Below, piece by piece: positions 3,259-29,363 of a DNA stretch of 32,000 nt. Positions within the stretch are counted from its first letter, which is position 1. Each line of letters starts with the position of its first letter. The DNA is taken from the NCBI GenBank assembly GCA_029269845.2, contig CP149973.1:2010001-2042000 (forward strand), in the 5' to 3' direction. A model generated the notes under the pieces. It ran no database searches and was not told the DNA's origin. It saw nothing but the letters and a program-made list of their open reading frames with translations. Source of the stretch: Opitutia bacterium KCR 482 (GTDB lineage: Bacteria > Verrucomicrobiota > Verrucomicrobiia > Opitutales > Intestinicryptomonadaceae). A program made the position numbers and the translations under genes.

Positions 3259-3475
3259 CTTGCCCTCTATCGGTTGGTTGAAATTTTTTATTCATTCTTC
3301 TATGATTTTGTAAAAATGCAAGGTTCAAAACTTAATTTACAAAGAAAAATTAAATCTCACGCTTTTTTGGGCTTGTGTACTGAATATAAGACAGTGCTAT
3401 GATATTTTTAAGTTGCACTATTTTATCCTTTTGAATTATATGGAAGGAGAAAAATTCATAACAACCTTACAAAAC

Positions 3476-5002
3476 ATGAAGATAAAAACCATAAAAATAA
3501 AGAATTTTAGAGGATATCGAAATTCTACTTCCATAAACGTTAAAGAACTAACAGCTTTCGTCGGCAAAAACGATTCAGGCAAATCTACTGTGTTAGAAGC
3601 CTTAGATATATTCTTTAACGACGGAAAGGGTATTATCAAAATCGAATCGGATGATTTAAATATAGGGGCAAGAGATGACGGAGAAAGTAATATCGAAATT
3701 TCAATTGTTTTTACGGACTTGCCAGACTCGATTATTATAGATTCGACAAATAAAACAACATTAAGAGACGAATATTTACTTAATGACGAAGGCGATTTAG
3801 AAATCGTAAAAATTTACCCCAATGGGGGAAAAGCAAAAGTCTATATAAGAGCAATGCATCCTCAAAATTTAGAATGTAATGATTTGCATGCAAAAACAAA
3901 TAAAGACCTTAAGAATATATTAGAAAAACACGAAATAGAGTGCGCTGACAAAACGAAAAATGCAACTATTAGAAAGGCTATATGGGATCATTTCTCCAAC
4001 GACCTAAATATAGCCGATTCAATGATTGATGTATCAAAAGGAGATGTAAAATCAATTTGGGAACAAATTAATAAATACATGCCCTTCTATTCGTTGTTTC
4101 AATCAGACAGAAAAAACAGCGACGGAGATAGTGAAGTCCAAGATCCGTTAAAAGAAGCGGTAAAACAAATACTAAATACACCTAACTTAAAGCAACAATT
4201 AGATTCCATTGCTTCTGAAGTATATGAAAAACTGAAAGATGTTTCGACTCGAACACTTGAAAAGATTAAAGAAATGAATCCTAACATAGCAAACAGCTTA
4301 TCCCCAAGGATTCCTTCTGTTGAAATGTTAAAGTGGCCCGAAGTCTTTAAAGGGGTCTCAATTACAAGTGATAACGATATTCCTATAAATAAAAGGGGTA
4401 GCGGAGTAAAAAGATTAATTCTATTGAATTTTTTTAGAGCTGAGGCAGAAAGAAGACGAGAAGAATCCGACAAAGCCAACATTGTGTATGCAATAGAAGA
4501 ACCAGAGACGTCACAACATACGAATCATCAGAAGATTTTGATAAAAGCCCTATTGGAATTAAGCCAAATGCCTAACACCCAGATTTTAATAACTACACAT
4601 AGCTCAAATATTGTAAAAGAATTGGACTTTGAAAATATAAGATTAATAAAAGACGATGGAAATCAACGCAGCATAACTGGCGTAGAATTAGGTCAATTAC
4701 CGTATGTTTCATTAAATGAAATTGCCTTTTCCGCATTTGAAGAAGTTTCGCCAGAATATCATGACGAGCTCTATTCCCACTTAGATGAAATGAACTTGCT
4801 TAAAGAATATGAAGATACTCAAGAAAAAATAGAATACATAAGAGGTGAAAATAAAAAATGGAATGTCTCTAAATCGGAATATATAAGGCACCAGATACAT
4901 CATCCTGAAAACAAAGAGAATAAAAGATACACAGAATCTGAATTGAAAGATTCAATTATAGCGATGAGAAAATTCATAATGGAGAAAAAGCGGCAACCAT
5001 AG
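3476..5002 (+). CDS. ABC/OLD-type (AAA_15/AAA_21-like) ATPase with a C-terminal ~100-aa tail carrying an Rx4H motif
   Basis: MKIKTIKIKNFRGY N-terminus, Walker A GKNDSGKST, Walker B/D-loop IVYAIEEPETSQH, H-loop ILITTHSS. The C-terminal tail contains YIRHQIHHPEN (RHQIHH at 4886-4903). The start at 3476 is uncertain; ATG 3440 and the track start 3413 are also possible. Confidence 0.8.
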   Translation: MKIKTIKIKNFRGYRNSTSINVKELTAFVGKNDSGKSTVLEALDIFFNDGKGIIKIESDDLNIGARDDGESNIEISIVFTDLPDSIIIDSTNKTTLRDEYLLNDEGDLEIVKIYPNGGKAKVYIRAMHPQNLECNDLHAKTNKDLKNILEKHEIECADKTKNATIRKAIWDHFSNDLNIADSMIDVSKGDVKSIWEQINKYMPFYSLFQSDRKNSDGDSEVQDPLKEAVKQILNTPNLKQQLDSIASEVYEKLKDVSTRTLEKIKEMNPNIANSLSPRIPSVEMLKWPEVFKGVSITSDNDIPINKRGSGVKRLILLNFFRAEAERRREESDKANIVYAIEEPETSQHTNHQKILIKALLELSQMPNTQILITTHSSNIVKELDFENIRLIKDDGNQRSITGVELGQLPYVSLNEIAFSAFEEVSPEYHDELYSHLDEMNLLKEYEDTQEKIEYIRGENKKWNVSKSEYIRHQIHHPENKENKRYTESELKDSIIAMRKFIMEKKRQP

Positions 5003-5067
5003 ATAAATGGCATAACGGGCTATATAAGTTGCCTTTCTATATTTTCTAACATTACGTTACACTTTTA

Positions 5068-5094
5068 TTATCTCCGCGTGTTTTGCGGAGATAA
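5068..5094 (+). terminator. 10-bp perfect stem-loop (TTATCTCCGC-N7-GCGGAGATAA) between the ATPase and Fic genes
   Basis: Perfect inverted repeat 5068-5077 / 5085-5094, followed by TGCTTGTTTTT. It could terminate the ATPase transcript or be a regulatory hairpin for fic. Confidence 0.4.
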
Positions 5095-5151
5095 TGCTTG
5101 TTTTTCTCCGCAAAGTGTGTTTTGATGGCGTCGACAAAGGAAGTGTTGGGT

Positions 5152-6261
5152 ATGTATATTTACGAGTGCAAAGGTTGGCCTAAGTTTATTTGGAATGCGG
5201 CGGATATTCAGTCTGCGCTTTCGCGGGCTGTATTTGCGCAGGGCAAGTTGCTTGGCAAAATGGGCGCGCTTGGTTTCGACGTGAAAAACGAACAGGTATT
5301 AAGCAGCGTTTCCGACGAAATCATAAAATCTTCCGAAATCGAGGGCGCGAGTCTCAATCTCGAACAGGTTCGCTCATCGGTTGCGCGCAGGCTCAACATA
5401 AGCTACAAATCTTCTACCGAACCAAGCCGCTACGTAGATGGAGTAGTGCGCATGATGATGGACGCCATCGACAACTACGACCGACCACTTACGCAGGAAC
5501 GGCTTTTTTCGTGGCACGCGGCGTTGTTTCCGACCGGTTGGAGCGGTATGTCCGAAATAGAAGTCGGCAAATTCCGCTCGGATAAATTCGGGCGAATGCA
5601 GGTTGTTTCGGAGCGCGGCAGCCGCAAGGCAATTCACTACGAAGCTCCGAAAGCGGAAGTAATTCCCGACGAAGTCGCAAAATTTCTGCGCTGGACATAT
5701 TCGGTAAAGCCCGACTTAACCGCGGCGGCAATCGCGCACCTGTGGTTTGTAAGCTTGCACCCGTTTGAAGACGGCAACGGGCGCATAACACGCGCAATTA
5801 CGGAGTATATGCTTGCAAGGTGCGAAAAGTCGCAGCTGCGCTTTTACAGTATGTCGAAGCAAATAGAGCTAAACAGGCGAAATTACTACGACATAATTGA
5901 GCACACGCAAAAAGCCAGTCTCGATATAACGGGCTGGCTAATTTGGTTTTTCGATACAATTTTCGATGCAATTTCCGATGCCGACAAGATGAGCGAAAGG
6001 CTTGTGTTTAAAGCCCGATTCTGGCAGAATCTTGTAGATGTCGATATAAGCGCAGGACAACGAAAGCTCATAAATAGATTACTCGACGGCTTTGACGGTA
6101 AAATGACTTCATCGCGCTGGGCGAATATCCGCGACTGCTCGCAAGACACCGCCTCGCGCGAAATCAACGACCTCATCGCAAAAGGCGTCCTTTTGAAAGA
6201 GGGCGTAGGGCGTTCGACGCACTACGTTATAAATCGAAACAAAATATATCCCAATGAATAG
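5152..6261 (+). CDS. Fic family protein (AMPylase-type Fic domain with DUF4172-like N-terminus and C-terminal winged-helix)
   Basis: Canonical Fic motif HPFEDGNGRITR. The N-terminus MYIYECKGWPKFIW is typical of DUF4172-Fic proteins. Start at ATG 5152 follows AAGGAAG. GC is higher than in the neighbouring R-M block. Confidence 0.9.
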   Translation: MYIYECKGWPKFIWNAADIQSALSRAVFAQGKLLGKMGALGFDVKNEQVLSSVSDEIIKSSEIEGASLNLEQVRSSVARRLNISYKSSTEPSRYVDGVVRMMMDAIDNYDRPLTQERLFSWHAALFPTGWSGMSEIEVGKFRSDKFGRMQVVSERGSRKAIHYEAPKAEVIPDEVAKFLRWTYSVKPDLTAAAIAHLWFVSLHPFEDGNGRITRAITEYMLARCEKSQLRFYSMSKQIELNRRNYYDIIEHTQKASLDITGWLIWFFDTIFDAISDADKMSERLVFKARFWQNLVDVDISAGQRKLINRLLDGFDGKMTSSRWANIRDCSQDTASREINDLIAKGVLLKEGVGRSTHYVINRNKIYPNE

Positions 6262-6589: not shown

Positions 6590-7169
6590 TCAACACCAAA
6601 GAGAGTGGATTTCAATGAAAGACGCCGCATAGAACCAAGACCCTCAATCTGTAATTTTGGAAGTTTTTATAACCGTAAGCCATTCGTTGTATTAGTTTCA
6701 TTTTCCTGTGGAAGCCTTCCGTTATCCCGTTGTTTTTTGTAAATCTCCACATTCGGATTATCGGCGCAAACCAGTCGCTTATGGTTTCTGCGAGCCTCTC
6801 AAACTCTTGCGTCGCTTCGTATTTCATCTGTTTCATCATTGTTTTCAGTTCTCTTATATTTCTCTTACATTCCTTTGCCGTTTGATGTTTCCTGTTCAGT
6901 AGTTCGCATATCCGCCCGTCTATCGACGCTACTTTCGCCTTCCTGTAATAATGGTCGTAAAATACAACCTTCTTATGCCCGCAACCGCGACAAGACGGTA
7001 TACCGTCTTGTTTGTATTCCAACCTCGCAAAAAAGTCTCGACCTTTTCGCCAACTTCGTATTACTCTATAAAAACTAAACAACATCAGAGGCATTGTAGG
7101 ACTTCCGTCCTCTTTGCCTCCCTTTTTTTCTACTTCTTCTACCCTCATCCCACTACCTTTGACGTTGAG
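6590..7169 (-). mobile_element. internally deleted ISL3-family IS remnant (5' zinc-finger part joined to 3' end of the transposase gene)
   Basis: The C-terminal part, ...WRFTKNNGITEGFHRKMKLIQRMAYGYKNFQNYRLRVLVLCGVFH, is the ISL3 transposase signature. The N-terminal part is LEYKQDGIPSCRGCGHKKVVFYDHYYRKAKVASIDGR (zf-ISL3-like). The middle DDE region is missing, with the junction near 6909. Candidate imperfect terminal IRs are TCAACACCAAAGAGAGTGG (6590-6608, +) versus TCAACGTCAAAGGTAGTGG (7168-7150, -). Boundaries are low confidence. Confidence 0.65.
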
Positions 7170-7553
7170 AGGGTCGTATTCTTTGAGCGTTTTATCGCGG
7201 AGATTTATGCGCTGACTGTGCGCCATAAAGTTGCGCGCGCAGTCTTGCACCAATACAACCTTGTTGTATGAATTTAACTCGACGCGCCTGATGGCGTCGT
7301 TGATGACAATCTCGGTGGACAGCCCGCGCTTGTGGCATTCCGTGTTGAGTTTTAAGACGGCCAAACGAACGCCGCTTGGAATTGTCATATCCTCTGGGAG
7401 CGAATACTCGCTCCTAAGCGAAAACATAAAAGATTTTGCTTCGCTTTGGGTCGTAAACGACCTTGATTTTATTTTGCCCGCGTCGGGATAAAACACCAAA
7501 TAAGGCGATTTGCGCCCGTCGCGGTACTCCAGTCTGAGTGAATTTTTCTTCAT
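7170..7553 (-). pseudogene. N-terminal stump (~125 aa) of a possible tyrosine recombinase/integrase, truncated by the IS remnant
   Basis: MKKNSLRLEYRDGRKSPYLVFYPDAGKIKSRSFTTQSEAKSF...VLVQDCARNFMAHSQRINLRDKTLKEY resembles integrase arm-binding plus SAM-like N-domains. No catalytic domain follows. It is read in frame into IS sequence, which gives the 313-aa chimeric ORF 6612..7553. Confidence 0.35.
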
Positions 7554-7704: not shown

Positions 7705-9921
7705 TTAAACGCAAAATCCGATTCTATTGTTGCTATTTGTTGAACGGTCTCTTTTGAATTCGGTCTCGCGCTTTAAAAGTTCAAGAATGTCGCGCTCGTC
7801 GTAGACGGTATCGGCAAACTGAATTTGCTGAAAGACATTTTTGAAATCTCCCGCCGTCAGATTGTTTAGTTTCTCCAATTCGCAAATGGTTTCCTCGGAC
7901 AATCCTTTTATAGTATCAAAAAAATAGCTCTTGAACAGCTTTTCTCTCGCATCTTTACCGAGGTATCCGAATGTTATTTTCTTTTGGAATCTGCGCATTG
8001 CTGCGGTGTCGATGTTCTCCAAAATGTTTGTGGAGCAAATAAAAATGCCTCTGAAATTTTCCATCTGCGCTAGCATTTCGTTTGTTTGCGAAATTTCCCA
8101 ATTTCTGCTTGCGGTCAACCTGTCTATAAAAAGCGAATCAGCTTCGTCGATTACAAGAATTGCCTTCTCCCGTTCCGCTTGGGCAAAGGCTTTGGCTATG
8201 TTTTTTTCAGTCTCGCCGACATACATTGACTGCATGTCAGACATGTTTTTCAGGATTATTTTCTTGCCCAGTTTTTGCGCAATATGTTTAGCCAATTCCG
8301 TCTTGCCGCTTCCGGGGACGCCCGCAAAAATCATGTTAAGCGGACAATTTACCACGCCTTCTTCCTGCTTTTTGCTGTAATTCGACAAAATTTTCATCAA
8401 AGTGTCGTAGGAAGTGTCCATGTTGATTATGTCGGCGTCGAAATGGCAGTCGGGCTTATATCGCGAAAATTTTTTCGGCGACTTCCCGTTTATTAAAACG
8501 CTTTGAGCTTTTGCAAAAGCCTCGGCCGCATCTAAAAACTCTTCGGTCGAAGAATCTTTAACGACGGTATTAGCCGAATTTACAGACAAAGCGATGCCCG
8601 CTGTGGATAATTGATATTTATCAAGGCGGTTGAATAATTCTTCCGCATCGATTTTGTCGGAAAATGTGGTGGCATTCAGAGCGGTTTTAAGCGAATTTAT
8701 TTTTTGGATTTTTGAAAGGCCGTCAAATTCTATGCTGAACGTAAACCTGCGCAGAGTAGACTCTTCTATTGATTCAATGGAATTTGTAATCCAAATGCTT
8801 TTTCCTTTCATCGAGTCGAGTCTTTTGTTGATGTCGCCTTTGTCGGTATTTTTGCGGTGTAAAAATCCGAAGTTCGACGAAATTATATTGTCGCATTCGT
8901 CGATAAGCGCAACTTTTCCAGTTTTGTTTGAAATAAACTCGGCCATCGCGCATTTGTTGAATTTATTTTCGTCCTCGTTGTCTTTATTGAAAATCGGAAC
9001 GGCAATTTCTTTTCCGCAGGCGGTAATAAGTGTTTTTGCAAATTCGGTTTTTCCGCTTCCCGCCTTGCCGTATAATAAAATCTTGCATGGTGCTTCGGAT
9101 TTTAACAATTCCAATATGATTTTCTTGGAGAGCGCCGGAACGTCAAAGCTCGAAATGTCGAACGTGGCGGCGTTTTCTTCCGCAGTTATGACATTGGGGA
9201 TGAATTCTTTTGTAAGTCCTTGTATGTAATCCGAAATATCTTCCGAAACTTTCAGCTTTTGATTTATAATGCCGAATTTTCTCAAAGACGACGACGATGA
9301 AATCAATGTTGTATACTCGCATATTTCAACGTCAAGCAAAGCCGATATGAGATATGCCCTTCCGCGTCCGTCTAACCTGCCCAACATTTCCTCCAACGGT
9401 GTCCATATCGATTTCACCATAAAAAAGACTATGAGTTTTGCCTCCGTCTCGGTTAACTCGAAGAAACTTTTTGTTAGTTGAACTTGCTCCGACATGTAAT
9501 CGAAATTTTCGAGGTCCAAATTTTTGTTTAAATTTTTCAGAACCATCTCTGTAATATTGGGGAGTAGAATCTTGAATAATTCCGAGCTTGATATGCCGAT
9601 TGTATGCGAATGATTCCAACTAAAAATGCGCCAATCATTATAATCGACATCCAATGATTTGACTTTTTCGCTCGAAAAATTACGTTTCTCATATTCAAGT
9701 ATGTATTTATGGCACGACGCCAACAAATCTACTCCGATTTTTTGAAACAAATCAACCAGCATATCCATGTAATTTGATTCACATTGCGGATGCCTATTTA
9801 GGAAATTTGCCTTTATTATTTTGTATGCGTAGAGCGCGCAAATTCTGTCTTCGTCGAATATATGTCCGCAGTTAAGATAACCGTCCGAATCAGATTTCGC
9901 AATAAGAATGTCTGTGCCCAT
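7705..9921 (-). CDS. twin-domain classic-clade AAA+ ATPase with ~270-aa unknown N-terminal domain
   Basis: D1: Walker A LLYGKAGSGKT, Walker B VALIDECD, then SIWITNS...STLRRF. D2: Walker A FAGVPGSGKT, MYVGETEKNI, Walker B ILVIDEADSL, sensor 1/Arg finger IFICSTN...DTAAMRRF. Confidence 0.85.
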   Translation of the reverse strand: MGTDILIAKSDSDGYLNCGHIFDEDRICALYAYKIIKANFLNRHPQCESNYMDMLVDLFQKIGVDLLASCHKYILEYEKRNFSSEKVKSLDVDYNDWRIFSWNHSHTIGISSSELFKILLPNITEMVLKNLNKNLDLENFDYMSEQVQLTKSFFELTETEAKLIVFFMVKSIWTPLEEMLGRLDGRGRAYLISALLDVEICEYTTLISSSSSLRKFGIINQKLKVSEDISDYIQGLTKEFIPNVITAEENAATFDISSFDVPALSKKIILELLKSEAPCKILLYGKAGSGKTEFAKTLITACGKEIAVPIFNKDNEDENKFNKCAMAEFISNKTGKVALIDECDNIISSNFGFLHRKNTDKGDINKRLDSMKGKSIWITNSIESIEESTLRRFTFSIEFDGLSKIQKINSLKTALNATTFSDKIDAEELFNRLDKYQLSTAGIALSVNSANTVVKDSSTEEFLDAAEAFAKAQSVLINGKSPKKFSRYKPDCHFDADIINMDTSYDTLMKILSNYSKKQEEGVVNCPLNMIFAGVPGSGKTELAKHIAQKLGKKIILKNMSDMQSMYVGETEKNIAKAFAQAEREKAILVIDEADSLFIDRLTASRNWEISQTNEMLAQMENFRGIFICSTNILENIDTAAMRRFQKKITFGYLGKDAREKLFKSYFFDTIKGLSEETICELEKLNNLTAGDFKNVFQQIQFADTVYDERDILELLKRETEFKRDRSTNSNNRIGFCV

Positions 9922-9960
9922 AAATTTTTCCTTTCAAGACAAAGACTATAAAAAAATTGC

Positions 9961-9977
9961 ACGACAAAATATGTCGC
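9961..9977 (-). promoter_or_regulatory. GCGAC-N7-GTCGC element upstream of the twin AAA+ gene
   Basis: Minus-strand reading is GCGAC ATATTTT GTCGT. 39 nt lie between the element and the ATG at 9921. Confidence 0.55.
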
Positions 9978-9988
9978 ACAATTTCGGT

Positions 9989-10483
9989 TTATTCGATAAG
10001 TAGTTTTTCCATCTGAAATTCAATGTTCTTTTCTTTTAGCTTTATCATGTCTTGTAATGCAAAGAGTCCGTCGCAAAAGAACCAATGGGTGGCATAGCAG
10101 ATGTGAATACTGTATTTTTTCAACGGCTCGAAGATTTCAATGTCCCAATTTTCGTCTTCCAAAAGGGTTGAAATTCGATCTGTGGGATTTCGGGGATCGG
10201 GATCGACCGAAATCATATACGGAGTTTGATGTTCGGCAACTTCGGGTGGAAAGTTTATTTTAATTGCTCCTTCTAGCGAGTAATTCCCTTCTATTACGCT
10301 TATATTTGTCAAATGATTCAACCAACATTTTCCTTTACACAATCTATCAAAAAGTTCGTGTGATTTTCTAAGCAGAATAGAATTAACCCGCTTTATTTTG
10401 GCTATGTTTTCTTCGGAAAATTCAAACTTTTTATTCAGCCGTATTTTTCTATTATGTAAATTTTCCGTGATTTTATTTTTCAT
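9989..10483 (-). CDS. hypothetical protein (164 aa)
   Basis: Strong SD (AGGAGG) lies 8 nt upstream of ATG 10483 and overlaps the stop of the upstream gene, a 12-nt gap that suggests an operon. No domain recognised. Confidence 0.6.
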   Translation of the reverse strand: MKNKITENLHNRKIRLNKKFEFSEENIAKIKRVNSILLRKSHELFDRLCKGKCWLNHLTNISVIEGNYSLEGAIKINFPPEVAEHQTPYMISVDPDPRNPTDRISTLLEDENWDIEIFEPLKKYSIHICYATHWFFCDGLFALQDMIKLKEKNIEFQMEKLLIE

Positions 10484-10495
10484 GATATTTACCTC

Positions 10496-11227
10496 CTACA
10501 AAATGCGAAATTTCTGTAAATCGTCCTTCGTTTGGAGAATGACATCATCTTTTAGCGGACGAATTTGATCTTTCATATTTTGCAACACACTTTTAGATGC
10601 ATTGTAAATGCGTTGGTAAAATTCAAGACGAGTAGGGAAATATGCGTTCCATCCGTCGCGAATACACGACGGCTCGATGGAATAATTCGACGTTGCAACA
10701 ATCAAAAATACTCCCGTTCCTTTTGAGTATAAAGCCTTGTTTATAAGTTGGTGAAAGAAAAAGTGGTTCCCTTTTCGTCCAAGCAATTTTGAGTAATCGG
10801 AGGTAATGGAAACAATGACGGGTAATTTTCTCTTCGCAATTTTGTTGTATTCAAAAAACGAACCGCCGAAGCTCTCCAAGAGTTTGTATCTTTCGCGGTA
10901 AATTCTGTAAAGAACTTCTGCTACATCGAGAATTTCGGGAGTTCTGGTTTTTACTTTTCCTCCCCAAAAATGGCAATTCCCCTTAAAACGCGAAAAGATT
11001 TTTCTCTCATTTGAATTTAAAATTATCTCCAATTCCTCGTCGGAATAACGCTCCGAAAGCGATGTAATTAGACTTGAAACGTATTTTGTCAAAAAGCGGT
11101 TGTCGCCTCCAATCAGAATATTCCCGAGCGAAAACAAGTCTTTGAAAACGGTTTCGCCCGTGCAGTTTTTGCCAATCGGAATAGTTATAGCTTTTTCAGG
11201 TTCAAAATTTTGATTTTCGTCTTTCAT
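10496..11227 (-). CDS. stand-alone FtsK/SpoIIIE-like motor-domain protein with degenerate Walker A and B motifs (predicted pseudo-ATPase)
   Basis: Collinear with the FtsK alpha/beta core. [34 protein letters not shown] corresponds to [47 protein letters not shown] corresponds to the Walker B segment (P. aeruginosa FtsK LPTIVVVVDEFADMM, sequence recalled from memory). [12 protein letters not shown] corresponds to GIHLILATQRPS. FPTRLEF corresponds to IPTRIAF. Confidence 0.75.
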   Translation of the reverse strand: [243 protein letters not shown]

Positions 11228-11250
11228 GTTAATTTATATACAAAAATTCA

Positions 11251-11267
11251 GCGACAGAATACGTCGC
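11251..11267 (-). promoter_or_regulatory. GCGAC-N7-GTCGC element upstream of the FtsK-like gene
   Basis: Minus-strand reading is GCGAC GTATTCT GTCGC. 23 nt lie before the ATG at 11227. Confidence 0.55.
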
Positions 11268-11283
11268 ATTCGCTTATGTATGA

Positions 11284-11775
11284 TTACAAAAACTCGTCAT
11301 ACAAAACGTTTCGCATTGTTGCGAGTATGTGGGGATTGGGGGTAGGTGGAAGTTCGAAGCCGTGTTTGTCGTTATACTCCCAATCTGTCTCATTTTCGGA
11401 CAGCACTGAATTTATGAAGTCGTTTAAGATGCGGCTTACTGCCGCGCTTCGGCTGATTCCCGCCGAACAATGAACGAGAATGTGTGTGATTTCCGTGTTT
11501 TTTAACGCTTCTTCAATGCTTTCCAAAATAAAGTATGCCATTTTGCGGTCAAAAACTTTTGTGATGCCTTTGAGCCCAATGTCTGCGGGGGTTGCGTCGT
11601 CAAAAAACAAAACAATTCCGTGTTTCGGTGAAATCGGAGGGCAACACAAATTTTTTACCTTACCGTCATCGTTTTTGCAAAAGTCGTTTATGCTTACAAC
11701 AAATAATGAATCGTCGGCTTCAAGCTCGGACTTGTGCGTTTCAACGTATCTTCGGCTACAATTAAATATTTTCAT
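11284..11775 (-). CDS. small cysteine-dependent (HCX5R) protein tyrosine/dual-specificity phosphatase-like protein
   Basis: P-loop signature ILVHCSAGISRSAAV (CX5R-S), with upstream acidic FFDDATP as a candidate general-acid loop. Size and layout resemble the prokaryotic 'predicted protein tyrosine phosphatase' family. It overlaps the upstream gene by 14 nt. Confidence 0.7.
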   Translation of the reverse strand: MKIFNCSRRYVETHKSELEADDSLFVVSINDFCKNDDGKVKNLCCPPISPKHGIVLFFDDATPADIGLKGITKVFDRKMAYFILESIEEALKNTEITHILVHCSAGISRSAAVSRILNDFINSVLSENETDWEYNDKHGFELPPTPNPHILATMRNVLYDEFL

Positions 11776-13000
11776 GGTTTTTAATACTTTCTATAATGTG
11801 GGGATAAACTCTTACAAATCTTTCTTGTAATTCTTGCGGGAGCTTATCCCAGCATTTGTGTTCTATACAATCGTCCAAATAAGCAGGATATTCTGCGCTT
11901 TTTAGCAAAGTAATCCACTGTTCGGGGTCATTTACATCGTCGAACGTATTGGAGGTAAGCCATTCGTCAATCTCAATAAAATCGTATTTTGTGGTGTTGC
12001 AGACTTTGCTTCGACAAGGCGAATCCTGTCCGAATGTTTTGTAATACTTTTCAAAATAAGAATCCGTGCCAAGTAGTCTATTCCAATCGGTTTTGTCTAA
12101 ACTTGTCCAATCGGAATTCGAAAGGAATTGGAGTTCAAAATTTTTGTTGACCAACAACAACTCTACCCATTCGGCAGAAGAAAAGTATTTAAATATTTTG
12201 CGCGAACATGCAGCGGCTCTCACATCATAGCTTTTTGCATATCGAAGAATGTCCTGCCAATTTTGCCGGCTTAGTTTTTTCCAATACGAAAAATCACATG
12301 CTATTTGATGAATTTCCTTTGAATGTTCGATTAACGTATCATCCATTATCCCGTCCAAAACTCTTTGTTTTAATAGAAACGTCCAGTTCTCCCCACTAAG
12401 TTGCGAGAAGTCTATTGATTTTAAATCGGCCATGCCCTTCGAAAAAAGCGCGATTTTCCCATTTGGGAACTTTGATGCTTGCGAAAACTTTTCGTTGCGC
12501 CTTAGCAGAAACCGCCAGTTTTCGATGCTAAGCAATTCGTATTCATTAAAGCATTTTTGCGGAATTATGCCGAGATACAGTAAGGCGATACGTCCCGCAA
12601 AATAATTCTTTGCGATATTTTCGTATTCTTTTGAAAAATCCAAAATCATTAACCACGAGTACGAATCGAGCTTTGAAAAATCCCGTTCGGGAAAGTTTGT
12701 CATCTTGCCTTTTCTTAAAACAAATAACTCGGCAAAATCATACTGTGAAAACTCGTCAATTTTGTTGCACAGGTCGCGCCTATTTGGGAAGCAAGCCAAA
12801 ATTGCAATTTGTCCGCGCAAAAATCGCGCGGCTTTTCTCAAAAACACGGGGTTTGATTTAATAAGGCGAATCCAGTCTTGCGTGCTCAATAAATCCCATG
12901 CATAAAAGTACTGTGTTAGATTTTGATGCTCAATAAGAGCATCGACGCCGTTAAAATCAAAAAGTCTTTCGATTTCTTTTTCGTATTCTTCTGCGGACAT
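11762..13000 (-). CDS. W-x2-(L/I)L repeat protein (degenerate repeats related to the 557-aa repeat protein)
   Basis: Recurrent segments include QDWIRLIKSNPVF, ENWRFLLRRNEKF, ENWTFLLKQ, QNWQDILRYAKSY, AEWVELLLVNKNF, TDWNRLLGTDSYF and EQWITLLKSAEYP. Start moved to ATG 13000 (MSAEEYEKE), 5 nt after AAGGAG, instead of the track start at 13105, which overlaps the regulatory elements. Confidence 0.7.
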   Translation of the reverse strand: MSAEEYEKEIERLFDFNGVDALIEHQNLTQYFYAWDLLSTQDWIRLIKSNPVFLRKAARFLRGQIAILACFPNRRDLCNKIDEFSQYDFAELFVLRKGKMTNFPERDFSKLDSYSWLMILDFSKEYENIAKNYFAGRIALLYLGIIPQKCFNEYELLSIENWRFLLRRNEKFSQASKFPNGKIALFSKGMADLKSIDFSQLSGENWTFLLKQRVLDGIMDDTLIEHSKEIHQIACDFSYWKKLSRQNWQDILRYAKSYDVRAAACSRKIFKYFSSAEWVELLLVNKNFELQFLSNSDWTSLDKTDWNRLLGTDSYFEKYYKTFGQDSPCRSKVCNTTKYDFIEIDEWLTSNTFDDVNDPEQWITLLKSAEYPAYLDDCIEHKCWDKLPQELQERFVRVYPHIIESIKNHENI

Positions 13001-13036: not shown

Positions 13037-13053
13037 GCGACGAAATATGACGC
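13037..13053 (-). promoter_or_regulatory. GCGAC-N7-GTCGC element (one arm mismatch) upstream of the repeat-protein/phosphatase unit
   Basis: Minus-strand reading is GCGTC ATATTTC GTCGC. 36 nt lie before the ATG at 13000. Confidence 0.45.
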
Positions 13054-13086: not shown

Positions 13087-13103
13087 GCGACGTATTTTGT
13101 CGC
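13087..13103 (+). promoter_or_regulatory. GCGAC-N7-GTCGC element upstream of the WYL regulator gene
   Basis: GCGAC GTATTTT GTCGC with perfect arms. 45 nt lie before the ATG at 13149. Confidence 0.55.
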
Positions 13104-13148: not shown

Positions 13149-14147
13149 ATGCCAAAGAGCAACAACAATAACACAATCGCCCGACAGTGGGAAATGCTGA
13201 AAATGATACCCAAAAAAGCTCCAGGAATTACCGCCGCCGAGCTTGTGTCCAAACTTTCCTACGCGGGTATTGACGTCTCAAAGCGGACGGTGGAGCGCGA
13301 CCTGCGCGACCTCTCCCTGATATTCCCCATCGCTGCAACCGATTCCGTTCCTCCGTTCGGCTGGTATTGGATACGCGACATCGGTTGCGAGTTCGGCGGA
13401 GTTGAAGTTTCCGAAGCCGTATCGCTTACGCTTGCCGAAGACATTCTGAAAAGCGTTCTGCCAGTCTCGATGTTAAAAACTCTCGAACCGCGGTTTGAAT
13501 CGGCGCGCAAAAAACTTGCCGCGCTTGATTCTTTACCCATCAGCAAGTGGAGCAGTAAAGTTCGCTATATTCCCGATTCTCTGCCCACAACGCAGCCGTT
13601 CGTGAAAAATTCTATTCTCGAAACTCTGCAAACGGCACTTGTTGGCGGCAGGCAGATAAAAGTCGCCTACGACCCAATGTGGAAGAAGACAAAAACATAT
13701 ACGTTAAACCCTCTTGCAATAGTTCAGCGTGGCGCGCGTGGATATCTGATAGCCGTCATCGACGGCTACGAAAATCCCGTCCAATTTGCGATTCAACGGT
13801 TGCGGTCGGTTGAAATTTTGAAGACTTCCGCCATTCGCCCGAAAGGGTTTTCGCTCGACAAATACATCGAAAGCGGTGTAATGCAGTTCGGACAGGGCGA
13901 AGTTGTAAAGCTTAAAGCAAACGTCTCCGAAACGCTTGCAATGTATCTCGACGAATGCGAGATCGTAAAAGATCAAAAACTGCGCTTTGTGGACGGCAAG
14001 TGGCAGTTGTCGGCTACAATTAAAAATTCGTGGCAGTTGATGTTTTGGATTCGTTCGCAAGGTTCAGACATAACGGTTCTCTCTCCAAAATCCATTCGCG
14101 AAGATTTGTTAAATGACGCAAAAAAAGTTGTGGAAAATTATGGATAA
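13149..14147 (+). CDS. WYL-domain transcriptional regulator (wHTH-WYL-WCX architecture; BrxR/CapW/PafBC-like)
   Basis: N-terminal wHTH ITAAELVSKLSYAGIDVSKRTVERDLRDL. WYL-type core GRQIKVAYDP...YTLNPLAIVQRGARGYLIAV...VQFAIQRLRSVEIL. RBS AAAGGAA precedes the ATG. Confidence 0.85.
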   Translation: MPKSNNNNTIARQWEMLKMIPKKAPGITAAELVSKLSYAGIDVSKRTVERDLRDLSLIFPIAATDSVPPFGWYWIRDIGCEFGGVEVSEAVSLTLAEDILKSVLPVSMLKTLEPRFESARKKLAALDSLPISKWSSKVRYIPDSLPTTQPFVKNSILETLQTALVGGRQIKVAYDPMWKKTKTYTLNPLAIVQRGARGYLIAVIDGYENPVQFAIQRLRSVEILKTSAIRPKGFSLDKYIESGVMQFGQGEVVKLKANVSETLAMYLDECEIVKDQKLRFVDGKWQLSATIKNSWQLMFWIRSQGSDITVLSPKSIREDLLNDAKKVVENYG

Positions 14148-14655
14148 TTTGAATTTTACCGCCATCGATTTTGAAACCGCGAACGGGAATAGGGCGAGCG
14201 TTTGCAGTGTTGGCGCAGTATTTGTGCGGGACGGCGAAGTTGCGGATACTTTTTATAGCCTTATCCGGCCGACGCCGAATTACTACACCCTCACCCGCAT
14301 TCACGGACTTACGCGAAACGATACCGATTCCGCCGCAACTTTCCCCGAAGTGTGGTCTAAAATTTCTGATAGGCTGGGGAATGCGCTGCTTGTAGCGCAT
14401 TTTGCAACTTTCGATGAGTCGTGCTTGCGTCAAGTTTTCGCCGCATACAATATGCCCTACGACAACTATGAATTTCGTTGCACCTGTTGCGGCGCAAAAC
14501 GATATTTTTCGACTTTACCAGCTTCCCTGCGTCCCGAAAGAACAACTCTGGACGTTGTTTGCGACTACTTCAATCTTGAACTTAACCACCATAACGCGCT
14601 TTCCGACGCCGTCGCCTGCGCACAAATAGCAATAAAAATAAAGGACTATCTATGA
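14140..14655 (+). CDS. DEDDh 3'-5' exonuclease (DnaQ/epsilon-like)
   Basis: Exo I FTAIDFETANG, Exo II LVAHFATFDESCL, Exo III HNALSDAVACAQI. ATG 14140 overlaps the WYL stop by 8 nt (ATGGATAA). Confidence 0.85.
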   Translation: MDNLNFTAIDFETANGNRASVCSVGAVFVRDGEVADTFYSLIRPTPNYYTLTRIHGLTRNDTDSAATFPEVWSKISDRLGNALLVAHFATFDESCLRQVFAAYNMPYDNYEFRCTCCGAKRYFSTLPASLRPERTTLDVVCDYFNLELNHHNALSDAVACAQIAIKIKDYL

Positions 14656-15305
14656 AAATTCTGACCTACATAATTTTGGCTCTGACGCTCTGCGCTTGCA
14701 CAAAAAGCAACTGCACAATCACCGATAAAATTTTTGCATTCAAAGAAGATTCTGCGGCACATCAGACAATAAACGAAATGCTGCGCAAGAAGTTCGCCGA
14801 ATTGAAAACGGAAATTGCCGCCGAAGCTGCCGAAGCTAAACGCGACCCCGAAGCCGCACATATTCAATACGAAGTTTCCGCCGAAACAAAAGTTTATGTA
14901 AATACCCCCAAATTCTTTTCCGCAAGAAACGACTATCATACCTATACAGGCGGTGCACACGGCGACTCAATGTCGGAAGGCTTTAATATCGTGTTCAACG
15001 ATGATGGCACAATAACAAGACTCTCGCTCTTCAATGTAATCGACGTAAACAAGACGGACGAATTTGTAAAACTCGTCCTGTCGAAACTGAAACAGAAATA
15101 CGGTAAGATGCTTGCACTCGACGATATCAAAACAAACACCGACCTGCTCAACGCCATAGACGGATTCGTCCTCAGAAAAGACGGTCTGGAAATCTTCTTC
15201 AAAAAATATTCCGTAGCCTGCGGCGCTTGTTCCACCGCCCCGATTCTAGTTGAATATGGTCGTATTAGTGATATCGCCAACACGGTAATTGACATTATAT
15301 TCTAA
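14652..15305 (+). CDS. lipoprotein with DUF3298/DUF4163-like (RsiV/PdaC C-terminal type) domain
   Basis: Signal peptide plus lipobox MKILTYIILALTLCAC. YHTYTGGAHGDSMSEGFNIVF matches the GGAHG core of DUF3298. ATGA overlap with the exonuclease stop. Confidence 0.7.
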   Translation: MKILTYIILALTLCACTKSNCTITDKIFAFKEDSAAHQTINEMLRKKFAELKTEIAAEAAEAKRDPEAAHIQYEVSAETKVYVNTPKFFSARNDYHTYTGGAHGDSMSEGFNIVFNDDGTITRLSLFNVIDVNKTDEFVKLVLSKLKQKYGKMLALDDIKTNTDLLNAIDGFVLRKDGLEIFFKKYSVACGACSTAPILVEYGRISDIANTVIDIIF

Positions 15306-16502: not shown

Positions 16503-16519
16503 GCGACATATAATGTCGC
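16503..16519 (+). promoter_or_regulatory. GCGAC-N7-GTCGC element upstream of the Imm-family gene
   Basis: GCGAC ATATAAT GTCGC. The arms extend to 8 bp (CTCGCGAC/GTCGCGAG, 16500-16522). 22 nt lie before the ATG at 16542. Confidence 0.55.
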
Positions 16520-16541
16520 GAGTTTCGCTTATGATTTGGGT

Positions 16542-16736
16542 ATGGAAATTTTGGTGCTTTTAGTTGTTATATTATTGGCGGCATTTGTTTATTTTTTGCC
16601 TGTGATTATTGCGTTTTGGCGCAGGCACACTTACAGGTGGGTGATTTTTATTTTAAATATATTCGGGTTCTTGGGTATCTTTTGGATTGTAGCGCTCATT
16701 TGGTCGGTTTGGCCGCGCGACGAAATGTTTAATTAA
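16542..16736 (+). CDS. superinfection immunity (Imm_superinfect family) small membrane protein
   Basis: VYFLPVIIAFWRRHTYRWVIFILNIFGFLGIFWIVALIWSVW matches the YFLP.IIA..R.H......I...N...G.....W...L.W pattern of the T4 Imm-like family, with two TM helices. ATG 16542 preferred to TTG 16536. Confidence 0.7.
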   Translation: MEILVLLVVILLAAFVYFLPVIIAFWRRHTYRWVIFILNIFGFLGIFWIVALIWSVWPRDEMFN

Positions 16737-16744
16737 TTTTTTGT

Positions 16745-16761
16745 GCGACGTAAAATGTCGC
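16745..16761 (+). promoter_or_regulatory. GCGAC-N7-GTCGC element upstream of the 71-aa ORF
   Basis: GCGAC GTAAAAT GTCGC. 51 nt lie before the ATG at 16813. Confidence 0.55.
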
Positions 16762-16812
16762 GCTGGTGATTAAAATAGACGTCGCCAAACAAAATTAACA
16801 GAAAGGATAATT

Positions 16813-17028
16813 ATGGCACTTTGGACTGTTACGGTAAAAGCAACAAGAAACATAAACGGTCTTAGACTCGAACGCGGAATGAGTGTGCAGGTCTCGTCGA
16901 TGTACCACCCGATATCGTATAATAACGGTGAAGCAACTCGTCAGGCTTTCATCCGAATCTATGGCATAGATTTAAAAAAGGCAGGCGCGCTTAGCATTGC
17001 GTACTTTGACATAGAAAAGCAAAACTAA
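16813..17028 (+). CDS. hypothetical 71-aa protein
   Basis: RBS AAAGGA lies upstream, the ORF has its own upstream palindromic element, and a terminator hairpin follows. No domain recognised. Confidence 0.55.
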   Translation: MALWTVTVKATRNINGLRLERGMSVQVSSMYHPISYNNGEATRQAFIRIYGIDLKKAGALSIAYFDIEKQN

Positions 17029-17036
17029 ATAACGAA

Positions 17037-17066
17037 GCGGCGGAATAATTTATTCCGCCGCTTTTT
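17037..17066. terminator. bidirectional terminator hairpin between convergent small genes
   Basis: GCGGCGGAATAA-T-TTATTCCGCCGC (12-nt arms) followed by TTTTT on the + strand. The stop of the minus-strand gene lies inside the hairpin. Confidence 0.65.
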
Positions 17067-17262
17067 CATCGAGTTCCTGTTTGTATTTTTCAAAACAAGC
17101 CGGATGTCGCTTTAAAACATCTATGCATTCGTCGGGGTAATTGTGCTGATTCTTTTCGATATATTCTTCCTGCGTTTGGGTGTCGGACTGCCAAAATAAC
17201 GGCTCTACCCAACTTGAAATGTAGGAGCACGCAACAACTATTAAAACTGCAATATCTTTCAT
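17050..17262 (-). CDS. small secreted protein or lipoprotein (70 aa)
   Basis: MKDIAVLIVVACSYISSW is a signal-like N-terminus with Cys. Start moved to ATG 17262 because the track start at 17310 overlaps the regulatory element. Confidence 0.45.
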   Translation of the reverse strand: MKDIAVLIVVACSYISSWVEPLFWQSDTQTQEEYIEKNQHNYPDECIDVLKRHPACFEKYKQELDEKAAE

Positions 17263-17298
17263 TTTTGTTTTCTGTTTCAAAAATAATAACCATCGGAA

Positions 17299-17315
17299 GC
17301 GACAATACACGTCGT
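17299..17315 (-). promoter_or_regulatory. GCGAC-N7-GTCGC element upstream of the 70-aa ORF
   Basis: Minus-strand reading is ACGAC GTGTATT GTCGC. 36 nt lie before the ATG at 17262. Confidence 0.45.
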
Positions 17316-17346
17316 TTAAGATTTATTTTGAGATATTTTTATGAGA

Positions 17347-17363
17347 ACGACGTATTCTGTCGC
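17347..17363 (+). promoter_or_regulatory. GCGAC-N7-GTCGC element upstream of the 557-aa repeat protein gene
   Basis: ACGAC GTATTCT GTCGC. 95 nt lie before the ATG at 17459. Confidence 0.5.
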
Positions 17364-17458: not shown

Positions 17459-19132
17459 ATGAAAAAATACACAGATGAACAATTGGAAAAGTTCAATTCG
17501 GAAGAATGGTGCGACTTACTTTTGGCACAACCGCAGTTTGCTGAACAATGCGATAGATTTAATGCTTGGATGAAATTCAAATCAGGTGATTGGACTGATA
17601 TTTTGCGTAAACTACCGCAGTTTGCCGATAGATGTGATAAAATCAATGCTTGGACAAAATTTGAAGATGTCTCTTGTAGTCTTCTTATCCGCGAACAACC
17701 GCAGTTTGCCGATAGATGCGATAAAGTCAATGGTTGGGTAAAATTTAATGACTTAGCTTGGTACCTGGTTCTCTCTGCTCAACCGCAATTTGCAGACAGA
17801 TGTGATAAGCTAAACGGCTGGGCAAATTTTGATGGAAGAGTTTGGCATGATCTACTTTTAAAACAACCGCAGTTTGTAGAAAAAGCTAAAAACTATGCAT
17901 CAGGCTGGGCTGGTATTATTATGCAGACTCCTGAACTTGCATCTGAATGCAAAGATTGGGAGAAGTTCGGCGGTTCTGAATGGATTGAGCTTTTACCGCA
18001 GTTTACAGATTGGTGCGATAAGGTAAATGGTTGGATGAAATTTACTTCAGAAGATTGGTGCGAATTTCTTTCTAATCATCCAGAACTTGCGGGCAAATGT
18101 GATAAAATGAACGGCTGGGCGAAATTCAATTCAGGAGATTGGAGTGAACTTCTTTCTAATTTTCCAAAGTTTGCGAGTAAATGCGATAAACAAGATGGCT
18201 GGAAAAATTTTGATTCAGATGCATGGGGTGCTCTTTTAGGTTCCCAACCGCAGTTTGTAACTAGGTGTGATAAGTCTAATGGCTGGAGAAAAATCACTTC
18301 GGCAGATTGGGAATACATGCTTTTCTATCAACCGCAATTTGCAGACAGGTGTGATAAGGTTAACGGTTGGGTGGAATTCACTTCGGGGAACTGGAGTGAA
18401 CTACTTTCAAAACGACCGCAGTTTGTAGATAAATGCGATAAAGTTGATGGTTGGGAACAATTCGATGGAGAGGATTGGCGTGCTATTCTCTCTTCCCAAC
18501 CGCAGTTTGTGGACAGGTGCGATAAAATAAATGGTTGGGCTGAATTCGACGGCTTAAATTGGGGGTACCTACTTTCAAAACAACCGCAGTTTGCGGATAA
18601 ATGCGATAAAATGGACGGTTGGAAACAATTCGACGGATTAAGTTGGTGCATCCTTCTTTCTGCCAAACCACAGTTTGTAGAAAAGTGTGATAAAATGGAC
18701 GGATGGAAGCAAATTGATGGATCCGGTTGGAGTATCTTGCTTTCGGACCAACCGCAGTTCGTGGATAGATGCGATAAGGTAAACGGTTGGGCGGAATTCA
18801 CTTCAGGGAATTGGGTGGAACTTATTTTTAATCATCAGCAGTTTGCTGACTGGTGTGATAAGATGAATGGCTGGGTGGAATTCAATTCGGTTGATTGGCA
18901 CGATTTGCTATACTATCACCCAGAGTTTGCAGACAGATGTGATAAAGTGGATGGTTGGGGACAATTTGATGGATCAGAATGGAGATACCTTCTCTCGGGC
19001 CAACCGCAATTTGCAGATAGATGCGATAAGGTAAACGGCTGGATAAAATTCATTCCGGCGGATTGGGATGAGTTGCTTTCTTCCCAGCCGCAGTTTGTGG
19101 ACAAGCGAACAAAGTGTAAAAAGAACTCATAG
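17459..19132 (+). CDS. tandem 28-residue repeat protein (~19 repeats, consensus DW..LLS.QPQFADRCDKVNGW..F...)
   Basis: Almost the whole protein is made of 28-aa units. No signal peptide or TM segment. No named repeat family recognised. Confidence 0.85.
   Translation: MKKYTDEQLEKFNSEEWCDLLLAQPQFAEQCDRFNAWMKFKSGDWTDILRKLPQFADRCDKINAWTKFEDVSCSLLIREQPQFADRCDKVNGWVKFNDLAWYLVLSAQPQFADRCDKLNGWANFDGRVWHDLLLKQPQFVEKAKNYASGWAGIIMQTPELASECKDWEKFGGSEWIELLPQFTDWCDKVNGWMKFTSEDWCEFLSNHPELAGKCDKMNGWAKFNSGDWSELLSNFPKFASKCDKQDGWKNFDSDAWGALLGSQPQFVTRCDKSNGWRKITSADWEYMLFYQPQFADRCDKVNGWVEFTSGNWSELLSKRPQFVDKCDKVDGWEQFDGEDWRAILSSQPQFVDRCDKINGWAEFDGLNWGYLLSKQPQFADKCDKMDGWKQFDGLSWCILLSAKPQFVEKCDKMDGWKQIDGSGWSILLSDQPQFVDRCDKVNGWAEFTSGNWVELIFNHQQFADWCDKMNGWVEFNSVDWHDLLYYHPEFADRCDKVDGWGQFDGSEWRYLLSGQPQFADRCDKVNGWIKFIPADWDELLSSQPQFVDKRTKCKKNS
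17501..19106 (+). repeat. in-frame 84-bp tandem repeat array (coding)
   Basis: The conserved core (C[AT]ACCGCAGTTTGC) recurs at 17528, 17612 and 17696, an exact 84-bp spacing, and continues to ~19.1 kb. The units are diverged at the nucleotide level. Confidence 0.85.
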
Positions 19133-29292: not shown

Positions 29293-29312
29293 TGGGTCTG
29301 TAAAAACAATGC

Positions 29313-29345
29313 ATGGGGGCGGATTTGCGAAAAATCCGCCCCCAT
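29313..29345 (+). terminator. Rho-independent terminator after the autotransporter gene
   Basis: ATGGGGGCGGATTT-GCGAA-AAATCCGCCCCCAT, a 14-bp perfect stem, followed by TTTG. Confidence 0.75.
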
Positions 29346-29363
29346 TTGCGTATAACACAAAAC

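Follow-up and report, generated by a model that had tools for sequence, protein, structure and literature searches.

The DNA analysed here is a stretch of 32,000 nucleotides from Opitutia bacterium KCR 482 (hereafter the window). It contains a cluster of five genes on the minus strand, g1 to g5, and, divergent from g1, the gene of a regulator with a winged helix-turn-helix (wHTH), a WYL and a WCX domain. The five genes form three units, g1-g2, g3-g4 and g5. The start of g2 overlaps the stop of g1 by 14 nucleotides (nt), g3 and g4 are 12 nt apart, and a strong intrinsic terminator lies 3' of g5. The GC content of the cluster is 0.35-0.44, compared with 0.55 in the backbone past 25.5 kb. An earlier, sequence-only reading of this DNA had proposed the cluster as an undescribed conflict system and had described the three units, the overlap, the gap, the clean terminator and the low GC content; the open reading frame (ORF) listing and the composition agree with it on each of these points, and its overlap and gap are exact. 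The coordinates are collected in Table 1.

Table 1 Positions of the cluster genes, the regulator gene and the shared boxes in the window, with the parts of g5 and the operator half-sites of related loci (L numbers).
Feature	Position or locus	Strand	Details
g1	11762-13000	minus	412 residues counted from ATG; TTG-extended form reaches 13105 (ORF listing)
g2	11284-11775	minus	163 residues (ORF listing)
g3	10496-11227	minus	243 residues (ORF listing)
g4	9989-10483	minus	164 residues (ORF listing)
g5	7705-9921	minus	738 residues (ORF listing)
Intrinsic terminator of g5	7683-7660	minus	strong; GGCGGCAAAG-GGGA-CTTTGCCGC then TTTTTGTTTTT
WYL box, g5 promoter	9961-9977		GCGACATATTTTGTCGT; -10 TATAGT at 9950-9945
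WYL box, g3-g4 promoter	11251-11267		GCGACGTATTCTGTCGC; -10 TATATA at 11240-11235
WYL box (one mismatch), g1-g2 promoter	13037-13053		GCGTCATATTTCGTCGC; -10 TATAAT at 13027-13022
WYL box of the WYL gene	13087-13103		45-47 nt 5' of the WYL ATG
Four further boxes	16503-17363		16503, 16745, 17299, 17347
wHTH-WYL-WCX regulator	13149-14147	plus	divergent from g1; assigned to DriD/DdaA type; recognition helix KRTVER
g5 N-domain	about residues 1-270		family-wide
g5 D1			Walker A G285-T292, Walker B D341-E342
g5 D2, classic clade			G534-K540, D592-E593, pore loop Y-V568-G569, N632, R643-R644
g5 C-terminal tail			R-I-G-F-C-V
Half-site CGAC	Opitutales, Fibrobacterota
Half-site GGAC	L016, L019, L052
Half-site GTTCC	L047, L048, L064
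Half-site GTGAC	L076

All three units share a palindrome with the regulator gene. GCGAC-N7-GTCGC occurs exactly four times in the window (11251, 13087, 16503 and 16745), against 0.04 expected, and copies with one mismatch lie 5' of g5 (9961) and of g1 (13037). The sequence-only reading had seen this element at all three units, and it is indeed there: exact at g3-g4, one mismatch away at g5 and g1. Its core, CGAC-N7-GTCG, is found seven times in the window against 0.39 expected; all seven copies are intergenic, lie between 9.9 and 17.4 kb and have AT-rich spacers. This core is identical to that of the published consensus of DriD from Caulobacter crescentus, ATACGAC(N7)GTCGTAT, which has an AT-rich centre and is read by Arg37, Glu40 and Arg41 (PMC10853764), and the site of DdaA, a WYL regulator of the Moraxellaceae, is CGWCA-N5-TGWCG (PMC12392091). 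The earlier reader gave the element no identity; taken as a box of the DriD/DdaA type (WYL box), it makes the cluster part of a regulon.

The boxes stand in a fixed relation to the promoters. At most of about 50 box-gene combinations, drawn from the window and from Opitutales and Fibrobacterota loci, the GTCG core is followed after 10-11 nt by a -10-like hexamer (TAnnnT; TATATA at g3), and in distant loci with other half-sites the palindrome and the hexamer are 10-12 nt apart. The box covers roughly -38 to -24, thereby spanning the -35 position. The g1, g3 and g5 promoters yielded no sigma-70 -35/-10 pair. Each of the three units has its own promoter and box, and in related loci the boxes move along with each unit. 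The extended palindrome at 9985-9953, which holds the g5 box and lies 3' of g4, scores as terminator-like together with its T-run (a 14-bp stem, then TTTTTTTAT), and the g3-g4 box with its T-rich sequence likewise scores as an intrinsic-terminator-like hairpin. The element at 9953-9985 may therefore serve as the terminator of g3-g4 too, ending one unit and promoting the next.

The g3 ATG lies 7 nt past its -10. In the Imm_superinfect membrane ORF at 16542-16736 (64 residues, Pfam 3.4e-12), which has its own box at 16503-16519, the -10 TATGAT at 16530-16535 is 6 nt ahead of the ATG at 16542. These distances of 6-7 nt imply leaderless mRNAs: the g3 transcript is probably leaderless, and the Imm_superinfect ORF probably encodes a leaderless, box-controlled small membrane protein.

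We then asked what kind of regulator reads these boxes. The WYL protein matches Pfam WYL (7e-11) and WCX (1.4e-8), with weak helix-turn-helix matches at its N-terminus, and its gene is the first of a plus-strand operon that continues with a DEDDh exonuclease (14113-14655) and a PdaC/DUF3298 protein (14652-15305). Its closest solved relatives are DriD of Caulobacter (8tp8/9pfq, ~5e-5) and next PafBC; BrxR and CapW were not identified among solved-structure matches at E values up to 10, and the WYL-domain chain 9cu3_B scored 0.013. The recognition helix KRTVER aligns with R36-R37-T38-A39-E40-R41 of DriD, so that all three base-contacting residues, R37, E40 and R41, are kept, as is the Tyr of the WYL motif. 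On these residues and on the box, regulator and operator are assigned to the DriD/DdaA (damage-response) type rather than to the CapW/BrxR type. The position of the box 5' of the WYL gene is kept in the orthologues L001, L005, L006 and L012, which suggests that the gene is autoregulated.

Damage-sensing WYL activators have been characterised as DriD in Alphaproteobacteria, DdaA in Moraxellaceae, and PafBC and SiwR in Actinobacteria; single-stranded DNA (ssDNA) is the signal of the WYL domain in DriD, PafBC and CapW. In the published description of DriD promoters, the distance between site and -10 is constant, the site reaches to either side of the -35 position and no consensus -35 is present (PMC13004042). 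The same two traits, fixed box-to-(-10) spacing and absence of a -35, lead us to favour activation over repression at the boxes of the window. If instead the box were a repressor operator of the BrxR/CapW kind, the WYL protein would silence toxic island genes until a ligand binds. The box does cover the -35 position and lies near start codons, the setting is a defence island, and the studied WYL regulators that adjoin defence genes are repressors (PMC9122601; PMC11662680). Against this, the promoters have no -35 element, the activators DriD and DdaA have matching recognition residues and a matching box, and the strict spacing to the -10, held across phyla and half-sites, suits an activator that contacts RNA polymerase, as in DriD. 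We therefore regard a repressor as unlikely.

A conserved target of the regulator is probably g5. PF00004 matches it at 5e-36 in two separate stretches, the two AAA domains; Walker A and B are intact in both, and D2 has a YVG pore loop, as expected of the twin classic AAA+ protein that the sequence-only reading had seen in it. That reading had called the N-domain private; it aligns across a large family of proteins of about 740 residues, conserved from the N-domain through the C-terminus, in which all the numbered D2 residues of Table 1 (G534-K540, D592-E593, V568-G569, N632 and R643-R644) are invariant. D2 matches Cdc48/VAT (1e-44), IetA (8e-32) and IteA (1e-23). The family has at least 474 matches among 185,579 GTDB species representatives and is spread over Spirochaetota, Fibrobacterota, Lentisphaerota, Verrucomicrobiota, Desulfobacterota and other phyla.

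To find what accompanies this family, we clustered the neighbouring ORFs, called by a simple ATG-ORF routine, of 77 distant loci. The WYL regulator was the sole recurrent partner. A WYL gene is present in 27 of the 77 loci, directly upstream and divergent in nine and directly downstream on the same strand in four; by a rough estimate, a random 16-kb window would contain one about 1% of the time. All 27 have the Pfam WYL domain, and 25 or 26 have WCX as well. No conserved partner other than WYL emerged: among the 136 immediate neighbours of the AAA gene, no Pfam family occurred in more than four loci. The N7 palindromes 5' of the AAA gene are not uniform: their half-sites (Table 1) follow the recognition helix of the neighbouring WYL protein. 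This covariation of operator and recognition helix is strong comparative evidence that the AAA+ gene is a direct, conserved WYL target. In L064 a second GTTCC site, at 15244, lies a few hundred bases 5' of a DUF2779 nuclease gene.

The tail of g5 is also conserved: 115 of 118 homologues have [IVLM]GF within their last 10 residues. A tripeptide of the [IVL]GF type is the element by which Clp ATPases dock onto ClpP, and in L063, L070 and L084 a ClpP paralogue (Pfam CLP_protease, up to 2e-80) adjoins the twin AAA+ gene. Tail and adjacency together make peptidase docking a reasonable reading, with a ClpP-type peptidase as the probable partner of the family's C-terminal [IVL]GF tail. In two Treponema-type loci, L070 and L084, a sigma-70-family gene is directly upstream and an ADP-ribosylglycohydrolase nearby, and L084 has a UvrD-like helicase too.

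g5 also matches phrog_10401 (1.9e-70), which implies that the family is carried by some prophages. A phage- or plasmid-borne module was considered and rejected: the g3 profile had no match in IMG/VR, and tblastn of g5 against phages gave only partial AAA matches except for one faecal contig (51% coverage).

The genes g3 and g4 are a strict pair, adjacent in five lineages despite one swap of order. The match of the g3 family profile to the FtsK motor (2ius, 8.5e-7) takes in both halves, and g3 matches the FtsK-like phrog_1358 (2.7e-9). Its Walker A is replaced by GGDNRFLT and its Walker B by VSITSDY, both invariant across the family, which bears out the earlier description of an FtsK-type fold that has lost its Walker motifs. 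Few proteins belong to the g4 family (74 clusters at 50% identity in a set of 1.84 billion proteins), and they share the motif NW[DN]IE...ICYAxH...L.D. A confident AlphaFold2 model of g4 from a diverse alignment (predicted local distance difference test score, pLDDT, 93.7; predicted template modelling score, pTM, 0.89) combines a long helical hairpin with an alpha/beta domain, which carries the conserved NW[DN]IE and ICYAxH; a Foldseek search of this model against PDB and BFVD gave nothing significant. A metagenome scan with a narrower g4 alignment returned seven loci, most of them short.

g2 contains the sequence FFDD...VHCSAGISRS, that is H102-C103-SAGIS-R109-S110, with the acidic residues D59-D60 upstream. 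Both this HCX5R motif and F-F-D59-D60 are kept in all homologues, including one from Lentisphaeria. Pfam DSPc covers the P-loop only (4.5e-5, 23.7 bits against a gathering cut-off of 33.5), no PDB match was better than E 0.1, and g2 matches phrog_5614 (4e-11). The earlier label of an HCX5R phosphatase is consistent with the conserved motif, though the Pfam match is weak and below the gathering score, and we describe g2 as a putative Cys-phosphatase-like protein. g1, described earlier as a W-LL repeat protein, has eight degenerate W-x2-[LI][LI] repeats. It is a distant, degenerate relative of the protein at 17459-19132 (557 residues), which consists of about 18 near-perfect 28-residue repeats (CDKxNGWxxFxxxxWxxLLxxQPQFxxx) and is preceded by two boxes (17299 and 17347). 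This longer repeat protein has neither a Pfam nor a PADLOC match; paralogues of it are present in L001, L004 and L006.

Do the five genes form one system? The sequence-only reading had put them forward as such, and several of them do co-localise elsewhere. All five are found in L012, L013 and L095, in identical order and at 85-98% identity. Beyond these loci, order and content are shuffled. L006 and L007 have the WYL gene, then g2-g3-g4-g5, and no g1. In L001 and L002 the WYL protein is 99% identical to that of the window, g4 is split, and the only AAA protein, encoded 8 kb away, is a paralogue with 34% identity. Inserted between g2 and g3 in these two loci is a PDDEXK_4 gene that has a box of its own, and their g4, split across two frames (10745-11229 in L001, 4982-5253 in L002), is probably a pseudogene. 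The order is g4-g3 in L003, L004 and L096, with the AAA gene on the opposite strand; L005 has WYL-g3-g4, and its contig-end ORF is not an AAA C-terminus. In L097 a WYL-DEDDh nuclease pair is followed by a box and a g4-like gene, and a g4-like gene, the AAA gene and a g2-like gene occur on L071, a contig from Lentisphaeria. Overall, g2 and g5 are usually near g3-g4, g1 is optional, the g5 family occurs mostly without g1-g4, and cargo changes fast among strains with WYL proteins of 93-99% identity.

In the Opitutales metagenome-assembled genome GCA_044433115.1 and related contigs (L008-L011), a 46%-identical AAA paralogue is preceded by other genes, for a 349-residue protein, a 261-residue protein with a D...ELK nuclease-like motif and a 215-residue membrane protein. 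The 261- and 215-residue genes were considered as g3/g4 homologues and rejected. These loci suggest that the partners of the unfoldase are interchangeable.

With shuffled loci, a promoter and box for every unit, and a g5 family that mostly lacks g1-g4, the five genes are not one obligate system: the locus consists of cassettes that share a regulon, and the five do not make up an obligate operon. A single self-contained anti-phage or conflict complex, with g1 as sensor, g2 and g3 as accessory proteins and g5 as motor, would explain why the five-gene order recurs in L012, L013 and L095, why g2, g3, g4 and g5 recur close together in several lineages and why the genes lie within a defence island. 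It fits poorly with the loss of g1 in L006 and L007, with L001 and L002, where the g5 paralogue stands 8 kb off, g4 is split and PDDEXK_4 intervenes, with the g4-g3 order and the opposite-strand g5 of L003 and L004, with the independent promoters, and with the hundreds of g5-family members that stand without g1-g4. We consider such a complex quite improbable.

At the other extreme, unrelated selfish or accessory cassettes could each have captured the same promoter type and be co-regulated without any functional interplay. Independent promoters and shuffled order would follow from this, as would the heterogeneous immediate neighbours of the AAA gene elsewhere and the remoter g4-like genes in other contexts. 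It does not account for the adjacency of g3 and g4 in all five lineages despite the order swap, nor for g2, g4 and the AAA gene being together again in a different phylum (L071), and it too seems unlikely to us.

The reading that we prefer, with a confidence slightly above even, is that g1-g5 are cargo of a local WYL regulon of the DriD/DdaA class whose conserved output is the two-ring unfoldase g5. On this reading, a homodimeric WYL regulator would bind the CGAC-N7-GTCG boxes at promoters without a -35, three of them in the cluster and at least five nearby. As in DriD and DdaA, by analogy, binding of a nucleic-acid signal to its WYL domain would lead it to activate these promoters; the signal, ssDNA in DriD, PafBC and CapW, could arise from DNA damage or from phage or plasmid replication. 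Induced g5 might then remodel or degrade target proteins, with its tail docked on a ClpP-type peptidase. The g3-g4 pair and g2 would be lineage-specific accessory modules, possibly adaptors or substrate selectors that interact with g5, or else independent effectors, and g1 would be an optional repeat-protein add-on.

Several observations weigh against this reading. A box that overlaps the -35 position suits a repressor equally well, and the promoter geometry is likened to that of Caulobacter by description, not by a numerical box-to-(-10) distance. Overall similarity to DriD is weak (E ~5e-5), and the class was assigned without a phylogeny against the CapW/BrxR repressor clade. A pairwise alignment shows substitutions at the ssDNA-binding residues of DriD (K202 to N, R204 to V, W206 to F), and the regulator may therefore respond to another effector. 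Of the 77 loci only three place ClpP beside the AAA gene, and in Clp ATPases the IGF sits on a loop, not at the C-terminus. The remoter g4-like genes lack g3, and the short contigs L097, L100 and L101 show no AAA gene. In other phyla, finally, the genes immediately next to the AAA gene vary and often have housekeeping functions; no partner is ever obligatory, and a defence role is not implied.

The surroundings of the cluster bear on its role. As the sequence-only reading had supposed, the setting is a defence island: the flanks contain an MspI-like type II restriction-modification (R-M) pair, an AriA-like ATPase (PADLOC, 3e-76), SoFic (8e-40), PDC-S01 and Dsr1 (7e-266), none of which bears a box. 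That reading could name no system for the cluster, and PADLOC 2.0.0 likewise has no family for g1-g4 (no match at E up to 0.1) and only generic AAA matches for g5. Its claim of an adjacent tRNA-att/integrase stump did not hold. Neither ARAGORN nor Rfam gave a tRNA or tRNA fragment in the window, where a tRNA-att site had been proposed. The supposed integrase stump, an ORF of 313 residues at 6612-7553, has no recognisable integrase; its last ~80 residues are a C-terminal fragment of an ISL3 transposase, joined to an unrelated N-terminal part, and it is probably an insertion-sequence remnant at the edge of the regulon. Further regulon members are the WYL-DEDDh-PdaC operon and the genes preceded by the four boxes at 16503-17363, namely the Imm_superinfect peptide, DUF6140 (16813-17028), a 70-residue minus-strand ORF and the long repeat protein.

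Elsewhere in the window, the AriA-like ATPase is followed by a DUF4172-Fic protein (SoFic) with no recognisable AriB at 3413-6261, an unusual pairing. At 25891-29391, two ORFs of more than 1100 residues overlap on opposite strands of the 55%-GC backbone, and one of them is presumably a shadow ORF.

The physiological role may be anti-phage defence or a DNA-damage response. Island context, low GC content, rapid cargo turnover and patchy distribution favour defence. A damage response is favoured by the class of the regulator, by the nucleases and helicases under shared control, and by the large number of AAA loci set among housekeeping genes. The two roles are not exclusive, given that DdaA controls both (PMC12392091).

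A stronger form of the damage argument holds that the regulon is LexA-independent and serves repair, tolerance or a checkpoint, not immunity, with the AAA+ protein clearing proteins at damaged DNA; the Walker-dead FtsK could then delay segregation or division, like DidA in the DriD regulon. Regulator and box of the DriD/DdaA rather than CapW/BrxR type would be expected, and nucleases are co-regulated or nearby (DEDDh exonuclease and PDDEXK_4), with a DUF2779 nuclease and a UvrD-like helicase in other phyla. A small membrane protein has its own box, as didA does, and many AAA loci lie among housekeeping genes. Such a regulon is harder to reconcile with a family so patchy (at least 474 matches in 185,579 species representatives), with the low GC content and the fast cargo turnover between strains with nearly identical WYL proteins, and with the position among R-M, AriA-like, SoFic, PDC-S01 and Dsr1 genes. 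None of the examined loci contains recA, uvr or ruv, and DdaA shows that the two roles can go together. A purely damage-directed regulon is thus possible, though on the doubtful side.

A more specific proposal extends our preferred reading of an unfoldase-centred WYL regulon. The locus might be an undescribed, widespread stress or immune module in which a homodimeric WYL activator directly induces a dedicated two-ring unfoldase that docks on ClpP by its C-terminal IGF tail, and to which the Opitutales have added an ATPase-dead FtsK decoy with g4 and a Cys-phosphatase as adaptors or effectors that would halt DNA segregation, or the pumping of mobile-element DNA, upon ssDNA. We offer it tentatively and think it rather unlikely.

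The regulatory logic is already known. Two things appear to be new in the literature searched and are absent from PADLOC 2.0.0: this WYL logic in the Planctomycetota-Verrucomicrobiota-Chlamydiota (PVC) and Fibrobacterota-Chlorobiota-Bacteroidota (FCB) phyla, and a WYL-to-twin-AAA+ module with g2, g3 and g4 as cargo. The DriD-type box and promoter geometry are now seen in Verrucomicrobiota and Fibrobacterota, and a co-varying regulator-operator pair precedes one AAA+ family in Spirochaetota, Planctomycetota, Desulfobacterota and Bdellovibrionota. These observations point to an output of this WYL class that is conserved but has not yet been studied, a two-ring unfoldase that is maybe a new ClpP partner. 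The locus offers testable promoters for how defence islands connect to DNA-damage sensing, and it flags three uncharacterised families, the pseudo-FtsK, g4 with its lack of a fold match and the small Cys-phosphatase, as candidates for induction by damage or infection.

Parts of the locus resemble several known systems. g3 aligns with the alpha/beta motor domain of FtsK/SpoIIIE over both halves; it differs in its size of 243 residues and in having no Walker A/B, gamma domain, membrane domain or N-terminal domain. A type VII secretion system was considered and rejected (EssC 19.4 bits against a cut-off of 778, EccA 29 against 467), its defining domains being absent. IetAS is reportedly an AAA ATPase-plus-protease defence system described by Gao et al., and D2 of g5 matches the IetA and IteA models as given above. 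Membership of g5 was rejected: the match is to D2 only, IteA in NCBIfam reaches 84 bits against a cut-off of 510, and the IetS protease is absent from the cluster; g5 also has a second ring and a distinct N-domain.

With the peptidase-docking unfoldases ClpA/ClpC-ClpP, VAT/Cdc48-20S and Mpa-proteasome, g5 has two AAA rings in common, together with a YVG pore loop in D2, a hydrophobic tripeptide of the docking type and, in three loci, an adjacent ClpP gene. pafBC adjoins the Pup-proteasome genes, and the g5 family is similarly linked to a WYL regulator. Unlike in those unfoldases, the tripeptide of g5 is at the extreme C-terminus and not in a loop, no peptidase gene is present in the window, and D1 and D2 both belong to the classic clade rather than to Clp/Hsp100.

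The regulatory side has closer counterparts. In BrxR/CapW islands a WYL regulator is likewise divergent from defence genes, with inverted repeats at several promoters; both of those regulators are repressors, however, and the BrxR repeats are 11 bp with a 5-bp spacer. DdaA is a WYL activator of the DNA-damage response and of defence genes in Moraxellaceae (PMC12392091). It couples DNA damage to defence-gene expression, R-M and CRISPR included, its palindrome is of the same type, and CGWCA-N5-TGWCG fits several boxes of the window. DdaA replaces SOS genome-wide, whereas here a local regulon with other cargo is seen in a 32-kb window.

The DriD regulon of Caulobacter crescentus offers the fullest comparison. 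The two differ in that similarity between the regulators is distant (E ~5e-5) and the ssDNA-contacting residues are not conserved in the window protein. The targets in the window are clustered round the regulator in a low-GC island; they are uncharacterised genes, not recA, recJ, dnaG, didA or bapE, and the phylum is Verrucomicrobiota. What they share is the wHTH-WYL-WCX architecture, the box core with its AT-rich spacer and the base-reading residues R37, E40 and R41. In both, the box is also in the regulator's own promoter, the site lies at a fixed distance from the -10 of promoters without a -35, and the targets include a small membrane protein as well as nucleases, the Imm_superinfect ORF with its own box recalling didA.

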